Source: a bacterium
Lineage (GTDB): Bacteria; Zhuqueibacterota; QNDG01; DSAB01
Length of the DNA: 64,000 nt
Reading direction: 5' to 3'
NCBI GenBank assembly: GCA_016931965.1
Contig: JAFGDT010000110.1
Coordinates: 40,377-104,376, forward strand
Shown here: in pieces, positions 7,082-10,275 of the stretch
Layout: every line of letters starts with the position of its first letter
Position numbering within the stretch: position 1 is the stretch's first letter
Notes under the pieces: generated by a model
What the model saw: only the letters and a program-made list of their open reading frames with translations
Databases searched by the model: none
Told to the model about the DNA's origin: nothing
Made by a program: the position numbers and the translations under genes

Positions 7082-7185
7082 TCACACACTCCCCTCCACA
7101 ATCTTAATCTCCTCCTCCGTCAAGCCTTACAGCTCGTACACAAGTCGGTCAATCTGCGTGTCTGTAGCATCGATCTGGCGCTGGA
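7082..7185 (-). pseudogene. orphan 3'-terminal stub (copy 4) of a Type IIG RM gene
   Basis: A 104-bp stretch is homologous to 10276-10380, the last ~35 codons of the 974-aa RM gene (QRQIDATDTQIDRLVYEL...). The Tyr codon has become TAA at 7127-7129. No upstream gene body is present. Confidence 0.8.
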
Positions 7186-7205
7186 ACTGCTCGAGATTGC
7201 CTGCT

Positions 7206-7733
7206 CTATTTCCACTCATCGGGTCTTCTCAATATAAAACCATCTAACTTCTTCAATCTATCTGGGAAAACGGAATTTGCGATTCTCTTCTCAGGGAATA
7301 ATTTTTTCACCTTCTTTATCGGTGCAGAAAGATCACTGTCTGCTGAAATTAATATCGCTCTATCGAACCGATCCTTAAAAGCATCGGTTAACATTTCAAC
7401 GGCAATATTCACATCCGTCATTTTCTCGTTTGGTTTTGGTATGATGTTGCCACATTTGTAACATTCGATATCATTTGGAAGATAGTGGCCATAATAAATC
7501 TTGAATTTTTTCAAGGTTTCCAGTGCTTCAATAAACGTCGTCTGTCTTTTTACTTTATCCGGTGGAAAAGATACTCGTGAAGTAAAATATTTTGTCATAA
7601 TTAACTTTTGATCTTCTTTTAGAAGAGCCTTCGCCAGTTTCTGTAAGTTCAACCAATAATAACGCTTCCACTTTTTCTCCTTCAATCCAAAATACAGATT
7701 AAAACCATCGATGTATACGATCACTTTTTCCAT
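7206..7733 (-). CDS. NYN-domain (LabA-like) predicted RNase with a Cys-x2-Cys insert
   Basis: MEKVIVYIDGFNLYFG and DVNIAVEMLTDA...ILISADSDLSAP are the NYN (PF01936) hallmarks. I trimmed the start to ATG 7733; the ORF caller used TTG 7751. Confidence 0.8.
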   Translation of the reverse strand: MEKVIVYIDGFNLYFGLKEKKWKRYYWLNLQKLAKALLKEDQKLIMTKYFTSRVSFPPDKVKRQTTFIEALETLKKFKIYYGHYLPNDIECYKCGNIIPKPNEKMTDVNIAVEMLTDAFKDRFDRAILISADSDLSAPIKKVKKLFPEKRIANSVFPDRLKKLDGFILRRPDEWK

Positions 7734-7744
7734 GATAATTTTTC

Positions 7745-7773
7745 TTGACAAACGTAAACAAAGGTGTTATATT
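7745..7773 (+). promoter_or_regulatory. consensus sigma70 promoter TTGACA-17-TATATT, divergent from the NYN gene
   Basis: The -35 and -10 hexamers are exact with a 17-nt spacer, and no plus-strand ORF follows. Confidence 0.5.
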
Positions 7774-7780
7774 TTATCCA

Positions 7781-7848
7781 TAAGAACACCGCTGGAGATA
7801 GCATCTCCGGTTTGACGCTCCGACTCAGTCGGGGCGTTTCTTATTTCT
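7781..7848 (+). ncRNA. candidate small RNA N (~68 nt)
   Basis: The transcript implied by the 7745 promoter contains a GGAGAT-AGC-ATCTCC hairpin and then a CGCTCCGAC-TCA-GTCGGGGCG hairpin followed by TTTCTTATTTCT, a Rho-independent terminator. There is no ATG in it. Confidence 0.4.
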
Positions 7849-7870
7849 AAGGATCTCATTGCAACGATTT

Positions 7871-7957
7871 CTCCACCACCTTAATCTCCTCCTCCGTTAA
7901 ACCGTAAAGCTCGTACACCAGCCGGTCAATCTGTGCGTCTATGGAATTAATCTGGCG
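7871..7957 (-). pseudogene. orphan 3'-terminal stub (copy 3) of a Type IIG RM gene
   Basis: It is homologous to the RM 3' end and reads ...SIDAQIDRLVYELYGLTEEEIKVVEKSLQ* in frame, but there is no start codon or gene body upstream. Confidence 0.75.
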
Positions 7958-8014
7958 ATTATAGATAACCCATATTATCCTAAAATTAATTTTGATATAG
8001 TTGAAACTTTTTAC

Positions 8015-8042
8015 TTGACATTGTGTAAAATATTTGTAATTT
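8015..8042 (+). promoter_or_regulatory. sigma70-like promoter TTGACA-16-TAATTT
   Basis: The -35 box is exact and the -10 box is weaker. It is convergent with the 3' end of the DUF3800 gene 8140-8865. Confidence 0.35.
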
Positions 8043-8048
8043 TATAGT

Positions 8049-8146
8049 GCGCCACATAGAGCCGAAAACCCTGATGATGTCAGGGAAACCGTTTAACGGT
8101 AGTCCAGAATTTCGAGACGTAGGCTTGTCGGGCGCCTTTTTATTTT
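8049..8146 (+). ncRNA. candidate small RNA B (~100 nt)
   Basis: It contains the hairpin CCCTGA-TGATG-TCAGGG (8069-8085) and an ACCG...CGGT hairpin, and ends in GGCGCC plus TTTTTATTTT, which abuts the stop codon of the convergent DUF3800 gene. These could instead be terminator structures of that gene. Confidence 0.25.
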
Positions 8147-8865
8147 AACTTAAAATTCCAAATAGTAAATCTCTTTTCTCCCCACGGTGTATTATCTCTT
8201 AAGTTTTTCAAACCGGCTTCCATGGCGATATAATTGGCCAATTTTTTCTTCGCTTCTTTTGTACCGGATAACAAATCATACTTATTTTTCTGAAAGCCGA
8301 TAGCCCCTAATATGATATCGTTTATTTGTATTAATTCTGATTCTTTTGAATTTCTGGGCTCAATGGATCGGAAAGGATTGGACCCAATTGAGAATTTTTT
8401 ATTCATTGTACGATTTAGAACAACTTTTAAAGTGCCTATTTTATAAGTTGTTTGGCGATAGTCAAGATGTACAATGAACCGATCATCTTCACCTTTTCGG
8501 CAATAGGTTTTTCCAAAACAGTGAAGTAGAAGCTGATAATATAACTTATAAAATCCGAGTTCTTTATTGCCTTTTGCAAATCTTTTATAATCGATTTGAT
8601 GGTTATCAATAATAATACAATGAAAATGAAGTTTGTCCGTATTATTCAGTGCGAAAAAATATTCAACAAATCGTTTGTACTGATCCAGTTTCTGATTACT
8701 TACTTTTGTCCACTTTAGTTCAGCAAACATCTTCTGTTCTATTCGGAATTTCTGCATTGTCGCATTAAACTCATCCACATGATTAGCCGGAAGGATAATA
8801 CCGCCTATGACCATATAACGATCTTTCGATTGCCGACTTTCATCACAATATATGTGGTAGACCAT
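8140..8865 (-). CDS. DUF3800-family protein (cassette B)
   Basis: An N-terminal IYCDES motif and a C-terminal LIQINDIILGAIGF (QxxD) motif are characteristic of DUF3800. Confidence 0.7.
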   Translation of the reverse strand: MVYHIYCDESRQSKDRYMVIGGIILPANHVDEFNATMQKFRIEQKMFAELKWTKVSNQKLDQYKRFVEYFFALNNTDKLHFHCIIIDNHQIDYKRFAKGNKELGFYKLYYQLLLHCFGKTYCRKGEDDRFIVHLDYRQTTYKIGTLKVVLNRTMNKKFSIGSNPFRSIEPRNSKESELIQINDIILGAIGFQKNKYDLLSGTKEAKKKLANYIAMEAGLKNLRDNTPWGEKRFTIWNFKLK

Positions 8866-8902
8866 TGGATTATCTGCTCAGATCATACTGATTCTTTAAT
8901 AA

Positions 8903-8946
8903 TTTTAATCTCCTACTCTGTTAAACCGTATAGCTCATACATCAGC
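8903..8946 (-). pseudogene. degenerate orphan 3'-terminal stub (copy 2) of a Type IIG RM gene
   Basis: TTAATCTCCTACTCTGTTAAACCGTATAGCTCATACATCAGC aligns with the RM 3' end (TTAATCTCCTCCTCCGTCAAACCGTACAACTCATAGACCAGC). It is shorter and more diverged than the other stubs. Confidence 0.55.
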
Positions 8947-9059
8947 CTAATAATATGGTGCTGTAACTATTTTCTTGTTCGTTTAATCTTAATTGCTATA
9001 TACATAGATAAGTATAAGGTAAAAAATTTCCTCGTTATATGAATTTTTTAATTTTTTTA

Positions 9060-9088
9060 TTGCATATTCAGTTTTATTATGATATATT
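9060..9088 (+). promoter_or_regulatory. sigma70-like promoter TTGCAT-17-TATATT
   Basis: The -35 and -10 boxes are near consensus with a 17-nt spacer, and the promoter sits in an AT-rich intergenic region. Confidence 0.5.
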
Positions 9089-9095
9089 ACTTTAC

Positions 9096-9188
9096 GACCA
9101 AGACAGCCGTAAGTGTGCGACTGGTGGGATTAACGTCCCCTTGGCCGTGCGAAATTTCAGCCCCTAGAATTTTCTGGGGGCTTTTTTT
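9096..9188 (+). ncRNA. candidate small RNA A (~90 nt), convergent with and overlapping the 3' end of DUF3800 cassette A
   Basis: A promoter at 9060-9088 is followed by a strong intrinsic terminator at 9159-9188: a 9-bp stem AGCCCCTAG/CTGGGGGCT followed by TTTTTTT. The terminator stem overlaps the last codons and stop codon (9164-9166) of the minus-strand gene. There is no ATG in the transcript. Confidence 0.45.
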
Positions 9189-9919
9189 ACTGGCCATCTT
9201 TTTATCCCATATCCACTTACTCTATTGTTTCTTCTCCAAAAACGTGGATAGATAGTTTTAAATTCATCATTACTTTTCTTTGTATTAATTTCTTTTCGAT
9301 AAAAAACGTTGGAACATATATCGGCAATCTGAACCATATTGGATGTATGGGATTTTGCAAAAAATGTCCCTTCAACAATCCTGAGTGGTTTTAAATGAGT
9401 TGAATAAGCTTGTAGATATGATTGAAAATAGCGGATGTTATCATCGCTTCCTGCACAAACTGGATCAAGCACTACAATACCACTCTTATCTGATTGAATA
9501 TCTAAAAAAGAGTTGTAACGTTCAAGTAATAATTCGAATGAACGAATTTCTGGTTTTACAAATCGATCAATTTTTGATGTATCAACTAGGGCCTTATTAA
9601 TTGAAACACTTAATATTGTAATATCTATATTTCCTCCAATAAGCGATAGTAAATCATCAAAAAATAAGACTCTGCGTGGTTTATCCCACCCAGAAAACTC
9701 TTTTTTGCCTTTTCTAATATGTGAGGCTTTTACTTCAGCATTCCAACTTAGTCCATTTTGTTTTTTAAATCGAATTAACCTCTCATTCCATGTTTTCCAT
9801 TTCCAACCGTGAATAATCACACCGACTCTTATATATAACTTTGAACCTCCCCAATCAATCCACTTCTTATCTTTTGGATATCCTGGATCACCCGATTCAT
9901 CAACAAACATCATATGCAT
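9164..9919 (-). CDS. DUF3800-family protein (cassette A)
   Basis: MHMMFVDESGDPGYP and MVQIADICSNVF are the DUF3800 DESG and QxAD motifs. Confidence 0.75.
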   Translation of the reverse strand: MHMMFVDESGDPGYPKDKKWIDWGGSKLYIRVGVIIHGWKWKTWNERLIRFKKQNGLSWNAEVKASHIRKGKKEFSGWDKPRRVLFFDDLLSLIGGNIDITILSVSINKALVDTSKIDRFVKPEIRSFELLLERYNSFLDIQSDKSGIVVLDPVCAGSDDNIRYFQSYLQAYSTHLKPLRIVEGTFFAKSHTSNMVQIADICSNVFYRKEINTKKSNDEFKTIYPRFWRRNNRVSGYGIKRWPVKKAPRKF

Positions 9920-9988
9920 AATGTTATCCTTTTAATTATTAAGCTTCATAAATTATCTAATGATAAATCTATACTGGCAAAATCTTAA

Positions 9989-10092
9989 TCACACACTCCC
10001 CTCCACAATCTCAATCTCCTCCTCCGTCAACCCGTACAGCTCGTACACAAGCCGGTCAATCTGCACGTCTGTGGCATCGATCTGGCGCTGGA
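9989..10092 (-). pseudogene. orphan 3'-terminal stub (copy 1) of a Type IIG RM gene
   Basis: It reads ...QRQIDATDVQIDRLVYELYGLTEEEIEIVEGSV* with an intact frame and stop, but an in-frame TAA lies immediately upstream and no gene body is present. Confidence 0.8.
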
Positions 10093-10144
10093 GTGTTTAG
10101 TGTGTACGTGCTAAACATGATGAATGTTTATTGTTCATTTACAT

Positions 10145-10275
10145 CCCCCTTTTAAGGGGGACAAATAATTCTCTCCCTTTGAAGGGAGATCCTTGGATAG
10201 GTTTCCTGTCCAAGGTAGAGGGATGTCATCTCCCCACGAGGGGAGACCCTTGGCGATAGCCAAGGAAGAGGGGTG
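10145..10275. repeat. BIME-like mosaic hairpin element, copy c (modules E-A-B-C-D), abutting the RM gene stop
   Basis: CCCCCTTTTAAGGGGG, TCTCCCTTTGAAGGGAGA, CCTTGGATAGGTTTCCTGTCCAAGG, TCTCCCCACGAGGGGAGA and CCTTGGCGATAGCCAAGG are followed by AAGAGGGGTGT. Confidence 0.8.

Follow-up and report, generated by a model that had tools for sequence, protein, structure and literature searches.

A Type IIG gene followed by copies of its own 3′ end

Downstream of a Type IIG restriction–modification (RM) gene in contig JAFGDT010000110.1, from a bacterium of the lineage Zhuqueibacterota, the 3′ end of the gene recurs four times without a gene body. We analysed a 64,000-nucleotide stretch of this contig (hereafter the window), in which the orphan copies (stubs 1–4, numbered outward from the RM gene) are interspersed with small genes encoding two DUF3800 proteins (DUF3800a and DUF3800b), a NYN nuclease and a DUF559 endonuclease (Table 1).

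Type IIG enzymes combine, in one polypeptide, an N-terminal nuclease-type domain, a gamma-class N6-adenine methylase and a TaqI-like C-terminal specificity domain. The RM protein of the window has Pfam matches to HSDR_N (5.6e-8), N6_Mtase, MmeI_Mtase, Eco57I (4e-38) and TaqI_C (4e-26) and matches the PADLOC REase_MTase_IIG model at 4e-201, a domain content from which we assign it to the Type IIG (Eco57I/TaqI_C) class. The composition of the gene is sharply divided: the part encoding the N-terminal and methylase regions (11500–13200) has 52% GC, the part encoding the specificity region or target recognition domain (TRD; 10400–11499) has 28%, and within the conserved 3′ block (10276–10430) the helix-coding segment returns to 50%. 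Genes of this RM subfamily have a hypervariable specificity domain; their last ~100–165 nt, encoding the C-terminal helix, are 75–90% identical at the DNA level between genomes. Because the TRD stands at 28% GC against 52% in the rest of the gene, this mosaic suggests a recent recombinational TRD swap, bounded by conserved blocks and ending inside the helix. The stubs (49–56% GC) resemble the N-terminal two-thirds of the RM gene, with the exception of the degenerate stub 2 (29%); the cargo genes and the RM specificity region lie at 28–35%.

A repeat search revealed five collinear direct copies of an 87-nt segment, all on one strand, at 10288–10374 (within the gene), 10001–10087, 8895–8981, 7871–7957 and 7094–7180. 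Identity among the copies is 82–85% (63% for the copy at 8895). A tblastn search with the last 36 residues of the RM protein hits exactly five places in the 64 kb, with E values of 3e-20 for the in-gene copy and 2e-17, 1e-15, 1.5e-13 and 2e-6 for the orphans (the next match, at 0.04, is noise). Since only these five places are found, the similarity is collinear coding homology and not merely the GAGGAGGAG run, as the initial annotation had maintained in describing ~100 bp of collinear homology. That annotation also held that the last ~45–105 bp of the gene recur four times; the four same-strand copies are confirmed, and their extents, fixed here by local alignment and tblastn, are revised to 69–156 nt.

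Copies of this length flank each cargo gene, and only 14–218 nt separate a cargo gene from the next stub. The layout first described is upheld: an RM 3′ stub precedes every cargo gene, the genes differ from stub to stub, and stub 4 is followed by a palindromic element resembling repetitive extragenic palindromes (REPs) and then by the DUF559 gene. In stub 1 the helix part is intact and an in-frame stop lies upstream of it. The in-gene copy plus its REP-like block, followed by stub 1, repeats with a 286-nt period, and we read the stub 1–REP block as a partial tandem duplication like one found at a related locus (L106, below).

Table 1. Features of the RM locus in the window (an asterisk in a peptide marks a stop codon)
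Feature	Position	Strand	Basis	Remarks
Type IIG RM gene	10276..13200	minus	Pfam, PADLOC	974 aa; identical to NCBI RQV92061
In-gene copy (helix0)	10276..10380	minus	repeat search, tblastn, alignment	encodes ...ETLQRQIDTTDAQIDKLVYELYGLTEEEIKIVEGSV*
REP-like palindromic block	10145..10275		repeat search, alignment	starts right after the RM stop codon; parts the in-gene copy from stub 1
Stub 1	9989..10144	minus	tblastn, local alignment	orphan, 156 nt; aligns to gene positions 10276–10430
DUF3800a gene	9164..9919	minus	Pfam	251 aa
Stub 2	~8883..8957	minus	tblastn, local alignment	orphan, 5′-truncated, degenerate; one stop (IIRLMYELYGLTE*EIKIIKESV*)
DUF3800b gene	8140..8865	minus	Pfam, PADLOC	241 aa; PADLOC candidate PDC-M04A (2e-48)
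Structured RNA-like element	8049..8135	minus	conservation, covariation	three hairpins inside outer stems
Stub 3	7856..7957	minus	tblastn, alignment	orphan, intact (RQINSIDAQIDRLVYELYGLTEEEIKVVEKSLQ*); differing tail EKSLQ*
NYN nuclease gene	7206..7751	minus	Pfam, PADLOC	PADLOC candidate HEC-09 (4e-71)
Stub 4	7082..7192	minus	tblastn, alignment	orphan; Tyr codon changed to a stop
REP-like element	7014..7082		repeat search	between stub 4 and the DUF559 gene
DUF559 gene	6593..7069	minus	ORF, Pfam	Vsr-like endonuclease; between REP copies
Exact 80-nt direct repeat	7044..7123 and 10238..10317	minus	sequence comparison	

Related loci carry stubs in different combinations

The check proposed at the outset, of whether other RM loci carry units of a stub and a gene, gave a positive answer: orphan stubs occur at L093, L037, L102, L105, L106 and L108/109. 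The most informative of these, L093, comes from a different sample and encodes an RM protein 54% identical to that of the window. Its order is RM / AAA_13 ATPase (PDC-S06) / stub / DUF3800b / stub / NYN / stub / orf135 / stub / orf239, its DUF3800b and NYN proteins are 87 and 77% identical (aa) to those of the window, and all four of its orphans keep an open helix frame. Window 8947–7282 aligns with L093 6795–8452 at 80.8% over 1668 nt, the right-hand homology stopping in the middle of stub 4; stub 3 is orthologous to the L093 stub that precedes NYN, and the 5′ half of stub 4 to the one that follows it, the 3′ 42 nt of stub 4 being identical to the in-gene copy of the window. On the strength of this alignment the segment stub–DUF3800b–stub–NYN–stub was inherited or transferred as a block. 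The initial proposal of serial cassette insertion is narrowed to that extent: the array did not arise by four single-gene insertions, since stub 2–DUF3800b–stub 3–NYN–stub 4 is common to both loci, at 81%, as a unit.

Simpler arrangements exist. In L004, from an organism that shares the REP family of the window, the RM helix is followed after a 20-nt spacer by DUF3800b (91% aa), with no orphan and no DUF3800a; window 8945–7996 corresponds to L004 476–1431 at 85%, and the tail of stub 2 with its 17-nt spacer is orthologous to the in-gene tail before DUF3800b in L004. Because the RM helix there directly precedes DUF3800b, stub 2 is the counterpart of an in-gene helix elsewhere. Contigs L094–L101, all from the same locus, read RM–helix–NYN without orphans, and show no strain-level TRD variation among themselves. 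In an empty-site comparison L004 and L094–L101 have simpler layouts than the window; with nucleotide identities of ~80% or less they diverge too far from it to stand as true empty sites, and no near-identical strain was found. Linkage of DUF3800 and NYN homologues to RM stubs, which the initial annotation had proposed to look for, is seen in L093 and in L037 (RM / DUF559 / 120-nt stub at 86% / DUF3800), and is missing in L004, L094–L101, L084 and L088, where the homologues have no stubs.

L037, L004 and L094–L101 came to light through homologues of the cargo genes. Seven loci (L102, L103, L104, L105, L106, L107 and L108/109) were sampled by RM homology alone, and four of them carry orphan stubs; over all distinct loci the count is seven of 12. 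The single trailing stub of L102 has no gene behind it, L105 carries one degenerate stub, and L108/109 reads RM / DUF559 / stub / Mrr; L103, L104 and L107 have no orphan stubs. L106, on a 2.6-Mb KSB1 contig, carries a 462-nt tandem duplication (the RM 3′ 167 nt plus 295 nt; 96% identity), a partial third copy, DarT/Macro genes and a further stub.

The pattern extends to other targets. At L046 a DUF3800b homologue lies behind an hsdS gene whose duplicated 3′ end measures 103 nt at 96%, and at L063 another lies behind a different TaqI_C-type methylase with two orphans; the 3′ sequences of both genes are unrelated to the RM helix. DUF3800 homologues are flanked by direct repeats of 30–133 nt at other targets as well, and neither inverted-repeat equivalents nor tRNA genes were found around the DUF3800b homologues. 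Beyond this group, each of the 925 E. coli genomes with an EcoKI-family hsdS 3′ end has that end in a single copy (0/925 with orphans), and ~18 distant RM relatives that share the helix motif (25–45% identity, viral contigs) likewise have no orphans. From these two negatives, the orphan-stub trait is lineage-restricted and not general to RM 3′ ends. A genome scan with the RM protein returned just two loci, distant or truncated; viral-contig scans with NYN and DUF3800a gave no matches; and a plasmid search with the helix peptide gave eight haloarchaeal matches, one of which (H1) adjoins a tyrosine recombinase.

Several further features of the related loci were observed. L108 (11018–11215) and L109 (4877–5462) encode the same RM protein and are 99.6% identical downstream, differing by ~390 nt of extra tandem copies of a ~120–145-nt repeat immediately past the RM stop codon. 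In L106 (11843–13775) the DarT gene downstream of RM is in two fragments 1.26 kb apart, and the intervening DNA is bounded by 26-nt inverted repeats (12217–12242 and 13500–13525; 92% complementary), which looks like a small insertion element inside DarT. In L084–L087 (~9735–9944 in L084) a 72-aa remnant of the N-terminus of an RM protein of this family precedes a solo DUF3800b homologue among housekeeping genes; the RM gene was apparently deleted there and the accessory gene kept. IS200-like Y1 transposase genes, possibly REP-associated, adjoin several RM loci of the subfamily, at L093 8876–9283 (where the Y1_Tnp match is weak), L103 2004–2615, L105 7161–7745 and L106 15143–15646, and the database protein P0344 has a Y1_Tnp domain fused to an RM enzyme.

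The copies are mosaics with coding-type divergence

Alignment of 14 copies from five loci revealed that the two parts of the repeated segment have different affinities. In the 5′ half (RQID...LYGL) copies cluster by genome: identity is 95–97% among the in-gene copy, stub 1 and stub 4 of L093, and 90% between stubs 1 and 4 of the window. The last ~40 nt together with the spacer group instead by downstream cargo, across genomes: identity of tail plus spacer is 68–76% for DUF3800b-linked copies, 68% for NYN-linked copies and 100% for REP-linked copies. The cargo would accordingly seem to travel with the helix tail at its 5′ side, and the upstream half to be homogenised with the resident gene. In its 5′ half the window's in-gene copy is nearest that of L004 (83%) and not its own orphans, as would be expected if the 28%-GC specificity domain had recently been swapped in an exchange that ended within the helix.

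Divergence among the copies is of the coding type. Comparison of in-gene copies with orphans gives a pooled ratio of nonsynonymous to synonymous change (pN/pS) of 0.24 (binomial p 4e-25 against neutrality), orphan–orphan pairs within the window give 0.23–0.39, and the four differences in the first 103 nt of the hsdS repeat at L046 are all synonymous. Most stub divergence therefore appears to have arisen inside functional RM genes, or to have been repeatedly overwritten from such genes. The claim that each event simply duplicated the end of the resident gene does not survive these comparisons: the copies differ mostly at synonymous positions, and the in-gene 5′ half lies closer to L004. The orphans are not preserved for their own sake at any noticeable level, orthologous orphans of the window and L093 being 64–78% identical against 68–82% for other intergenic DNA. 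Stop codons interrupt two of the four stubs in the window, and truncation has shortened several stubs.

Cargo genes and an associated structured RNA

Two of the cargo proteins fall in PADLOC candidate defence families (Table 1), and among the relatives the accessory genes are an ABC ATPase, DarTG, Mrr, DUF2971 and DUF559. The early statement that such families recur beside RM systems is substantiated: PDC-M04A and HEC-09 in the window, and the PDC-S06 ATPase, DarT/Macro, Mrr and DUF559 in relatives, belong to families found beside RM systems or inside them. DUF3800a has no PADLOC match; a sigma-70-like site (9980–9952) lies between stub 1 and its start codon, and promoter and terminator scans gave counts near shuffled expectation. 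DUF3800b is predicted to adopt an RNase HII/HIII-like fold. The partner gene B of PDC-M04 appears to be absent here. The true start of the DUF559 gene is probably the ATG near 6960. The array has mutS, ValRS, RecG and epimerase genes as neighbours.

The NYN protein is 181 aa long, or 175 aa from the ATG at 7733 that gives the NCBI protein. Its gene has lost ~80 nt near the 3′ end relative to the 203-aa family (window 7206–7290 against L093 8452–8612), and because of this deletion the shortened nuclease may be inactive. HEC-09 is a candidate embedded in Hma systems and, in the one published test, failed to protect against the phages used (Payne et al, 2024; bioRxiv 10.1101/2024.01.29.577857). 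In the interval between stub 3 and NYN (7752–7855, minus strand) we observe 82% conservation with L093, above that of other intergenic DNA, and two GC-rich hairpins; the interval may act as a 5′ leader of NYN or regulate it.

A structured RNA-like element of ~87 nt begins a few bases past the DUF3800b stop codon, its best-conserved core lying 36–93 nt downstream, and is conserved where the coding DNA is no longer alignable. Across 22 sequences 87.5% of cells pair and 14 pairs show double changes, a result matched by 0 of 500 shuffles. The element is found directly 3′ of DUF3800b-family genes in L004, L006, L011–L013, L028, L034, L036–L050, L060, L084, L088 and L093, and belongs to the DUF3800b cassette. 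RNA motifs associated with DUF3800 are already known (Weinberg et al, 2017; PMC5737381). Rfam includes DUF3800-I and DUF3800-IX, and a 221-nt stretch with the element has no Rfam 15 match even at E ≤ 10, a comparison that covers the motifs Rfam holds, perhaps fewer than all eleven published. In view of this lack of a match the element may be a further DUF3800-associated RNA motif.

REP-like elements and the bracket around the array

REP-like copies lie at 6525–6593, 7014–7082, 10208–10276 and 13258–13326, all in one orientation. The core (CCTTGGCGATAGCCAAGG) occurs only four times in the 64 kb, each time at the RM locus, with copies placed exactly on either side of the RM gene and of the DUF559 gene and starting right at the stop codons. 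The element has a sub-threshold match to Rfam whalefall-1, and REP-like units also flank two DUF559 copies in L004. Of the hallmarks of REPs and bacterial interspersed mosaic elements, the palindromic structure is present; there are four copies at one locus, and none of the ORFs (open reading frames) examined in the window is a Y1 transposase.

The exact 80-nt repeat consists of the 3′ 42 nt of the helix and 38 nt of the REP-like element, and brackets a 3.19-kb array. An independent assembly (Logan contig L001, SRR13394437) reproduces window 10312–7094 at 100%. This contig starts and ends inside the 80-nt repeat and its two ends overlap, so that the joins of the array to the RM gene and to the DUF559 gene come from the metagenome-assembled genome (MAG) alone. 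The order RM–array–DUF559 is one of two solutions of the assembly graph, the other being an empty site plus a circle or tandem unit, and the bracket with the overlapping ends of L001 could reflect an excised circle, a tandem unit or polymorphism among strains. Duplication by the assembler had been named as a possible refutation of the array: the copies themselves are real (L001 at 100%, the L093 block at 81%), and the ends of the array are as the MAG gives them.

No sign of a dedicated recombination system

The initial annotation described the array as free of integrases, transposases and attC-like sites, and this is borne out. Among ORFs of at least 160 aa within ~10 kb either side we find no recombinase, integrase or transposase. 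Folded as single-stranded DNA the five copies do no better than shuffled sequence as attC-like sites (z-scores −0.29 to +2.29), and the stubs contain no inverted repeats. The stubs differ by tens of nucleotides in where their left boundary falls; together with the lack of hairpin potential this disfavours a site-specific site. An integron can be rejected on both of its components, intI (no recombinase within ~10 kb) and attC (no hairpin potential). A phase-variable shufflon of hsdS type is rejected as well: the copies are direct and on one strand, the ORFs encode DUF3800, NYN and DUF559 proteins and not TRDs, and there is no recombinase. Two features that characterise insertion with long target duplication are present, namely flanking direct repeats of more than 30 bp and the absence of a mobility gene in or next to the insert.

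A proposed recombination-built array and its alternatives

We favour a reading in which recombination assembled the locus, an array of accessory defence genes, at the 3′ end of a Type IIG RM gene, and put its probability, judged from comparison of sequences, at roughly 0.55. Here the stubs are scars that double as recombination substrates, not genes, and the conserved 3′ block (last ~100–165 nt) would serve as a portable homology arm. Orphans would be seeded downstream, with no damage to the gene, by duplications whose start lies within its 3′ end, either tandem duplication of the 3′ end with downstream DNA or insertion with long target duplication; the tandem route is directly visible in L106 (462 nt, 96%) and in the 286-nt period of in-gene helix, REP and stub 1 in the window. 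Through RecA-type homologous recombination or gene conversion, helix copies would then exchange with each other inside a genome and with incoming DNA from related RM loci; units would be added, removed and swapped in this way, each consisting of the helix tail, the spacer and the gene (with its 3′ RNA where it has one). This step is suggested by the mosaicism, and the mosaic copies indeed fit the homologous recombination through the conserved 3′ segment that had been raised at the outset. Whole blocks would move too, for instance when circles integrate or excise in Campbell fashion or through a double crossover that uses two helix copies. Orphans then decay, as the stop codons and truncations reported above show. 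The order of these events, like any benefit of co-location, is put forward here as probable at best.

Several points weigh against this reading. No recombination event has been directly observed, the basis being sequence comparison. Homologous exchange accounts for the spread of stubs and not for the origin of the first one, and helix copies of 75–90% identity over ~100 nt are poor RecA substrates. The low pN/pS is also explicable by repeated gene conversion from a selected in-gene copy. REP-like elements lie exactly at several junctions and Y1 transposase genes near four related loci, so that a role for them is possible. At L035, L042 and L068/L074 direct repeats flank DUF3800 with no recognisable RM end, and RM-helix homology offers no explanation there. 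The order RM–array–DUF559, finally, crosses a perfect 80-nt repeat, with the MAG assembly its sole basis. A stronger version of the favoured reading would make the 3′ block the recombination site of an integrase-free, integron-like cassette system run by general recombination, in which units or blocks excise between two stubs as circles of stub plus gene and re-enter the 3′ end of any family member. The 80-nt bracket and the overlapping ends of L001 would suit a population in which such circles, or empty sites, are present alongside the array. This stronger version we entertain only tentatively, well short of an even chance.

Non-homologous, serial insertion with long target duplication (by staggered or double-strand break repair or replicative template switching) would have each incoming gene or block duplicate the resident RM 3′ end, making homologous exchange inessential. 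It would explain why stub 5′ halves match the resident in-gene copy within a genome (95–97% in L093), why a perfect 80-nt repeat brackets the array, and why L106 has a tandem duplication at 96% and L102 a trailing stub that heads no gene; DUF3800 homologues between 30–133-nt direct repeats at other targets favour it too, and the phenomenon is documented for RM genes themselves (PMC2853133). Yet stub tails are orthologous across genomes and linked to their cargo, which argues that the cargo arrives carrying part of the helix, the stub 2–DUF3800b junction equals the in-gene helix–DUF3800b junction of L004, and a pN/pS of 0.24, orphan–orphan pairs included, lies below the neutral expectation after duplication; we consider this account unlikely. 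That the stubs are instead the remains of tandem full-length RM paralogues, each with an accessory gene and with bodies later deleted, is improbable. The mainly synonymous differences are those expected of the ends of once-functional genes, stub 1 retains ~50 nt of decayed sequence upstream of the helix, and L084–L087 preserve the 72-aa N-terminal remnant beside a solo DUF3800, but only 14–218 nt separate cargo gene and next stub, tblastn with the RM protein finds no methylase or TRD remnants, the deletions would have to end near the same point in many independent stubs, and the 5′ halves are homogenised within genomes.

A site-specific cassette system whose recombinase lies elsewhere (a REP-associated or IS200-like Y1 transposase, Xer or an integrase of another kind), acting on the helix block or the REP, has in its favour that REP-like elements abut the in-gene copy and stub 4 exactly at the stop codon and are confined to this locus within the 64 kb, that Y1_Tnp genes lie near the RM loci L103, L105 and L106 (with the weak match in L093), and that REP copy number differs between L108 and L109. 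The variable left boundaries, the lack of hairpin potential, the absence of a REP next to stubs 1–3 and of a recombinase within 10 kb in the window, and the same pattern at hsdS and another methylase with unrelated 3′ sequences render it quite improbable. Functional stubs, whether as translated helix peptides that modulate the enzyme, as reserve 3′ ends of the gene or as signals for cargo expression, would suit the open helix frames of many orphans (all four in L093), a pN/pS below 1 and the presence of a stub upstream of every cargo gene; given the stop codons in two of four window stubs, the truncation of several, the lack of an obvious start codon heading the window stubs (a reading of the sequence, not a systematic search), conservation of orthologous stubs no better than that of adjacent intergenic DNA, and homologous cargo without stubs in L004, L094–L101, L084 and L088, we hold this to be very improbable. 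An assembly artefact, in which repeats were mis-joined or duplicated by the assembler, can be given next to no weight: the perfect 80-nt repeat is long enough to confuse k-mer graphs and the Logan contig breaks inside it, but the copies differ from one another by 8–37%, an independent assembly reproduces the internal order at 100%, an orthologous block with stubs exists in another sample at 81% identity, and stubs are also found on a 2.6-Mb contig.

Significance and comparison with known systems

Defence islands and embedded defence genes are well catalogued, and their assembly without mobile-element genes is largely unexplained. A short conserved coding block reused as a homology arm would allow defence genes to be stacked, swapped and lost without an integrase, and the array may account for some defence-gene embedding. 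The RM subfamily has more than 8000 members in metagenomes. Should the arrangement hold throughout the subfamily, new defence candidates could be found by the rule that they lie between orphan RM tails, some of the co-transfer of RM genes with accessory nucleases would be accounted for, and the little-understood process of insertion with long target duplication would be extended. Were the stronger, cassette-system version true, it would offer a general route by which defence genes become embedded in, or accumulate behind, RM systems. The locus also links DUF3800 (predicted to be RNase H-like) and a dedicated structured RNA to RM loci.

In arrangement the locus recalls integron arrays, with which it shares one-directional, single-gene, mostly promoter-poor cassettes beside a fixed platform gene and a repeated element that bounds the units; unlike an integron it has no intI, attI or attC hairpins, its repeat is a coding fragment of the platform and its boundaries are imprecise. 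Neisseria minimal mobile elements are variable cassettes exchanged within conserved flanks, with two full flanking genes and no stubs, and tandem island accretion at tRNA and tmRNA 3′ ends yields rows of duplicated target ends and needs integrases and precise att cores. Exchange through conserved flanks is the point shared with the former, and a row of duplicated target 3′ ends the point shared with the latter. Repeats of phase-variable hsdS loci are mostly inverted and flank alternative TRDs, and a dedicated recombinase switches specificity. In the pneumococcal ivr/tvr phase-variable Type I hsdS loci, which hold partial hsdS copies, conserved helix-coding segments of an RM specificity module likewise recur within the locus as recombination sites. 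Excision–reintegration is reported (PMC6265443). Here, by contrast, the repeats are direct and flank unrelated genes, and RM specificity is unaffected.

‘Guilt by embedding’ has been used to catalogue genes located in RM, BREX, DISARM and Hma systems, as a matter of co-location and with no insertion mechanism (Payne et al, 2024; bioRxiv 10.1101/2024.01.29.577857). The HEC-09 NYN, PDC-M04A DUF3800 and PDC-S06 ATPase families, the orientation with the host and the lack of mobility genes are common to those cases and to ours, and PrrC inside EcoprrI is a further example of the same group; those hosts are multi-gene systems, whereas the cargo here trails a gene for a single-polypeptide Type IIG enzyme and is delimited by duplicated gene ends.

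The nearest precedent is the insertion of RM genes with long target duplication, without mobility genes, described by Furuta, Abe & Kobayashi (2010; PMC2853133), who cite an earlier report of the same group. Their cases and the present locus share an insert between long direct repeats (more than 30 bp, variable), the absence of a transposase or integrase, an association with RM systems and a mechanism that is unexplained. In those cases, however, the RM system is the cargo and there is a single pair of repeats; here the RM 3′ end is the target, reused up to four times in an array, the cargo consists of small non-RM defence-type genes, and the copies are mosaics with coding-type divergence, which indicates homologous exchange between loci. 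Accretion at an RM terminus, regarded at first as undescribed, thus has a precedent in its general form. What appears to be new is that the RM gene’s own terminus would be used repeatedly as both duplication target and homology arm, forming an array.

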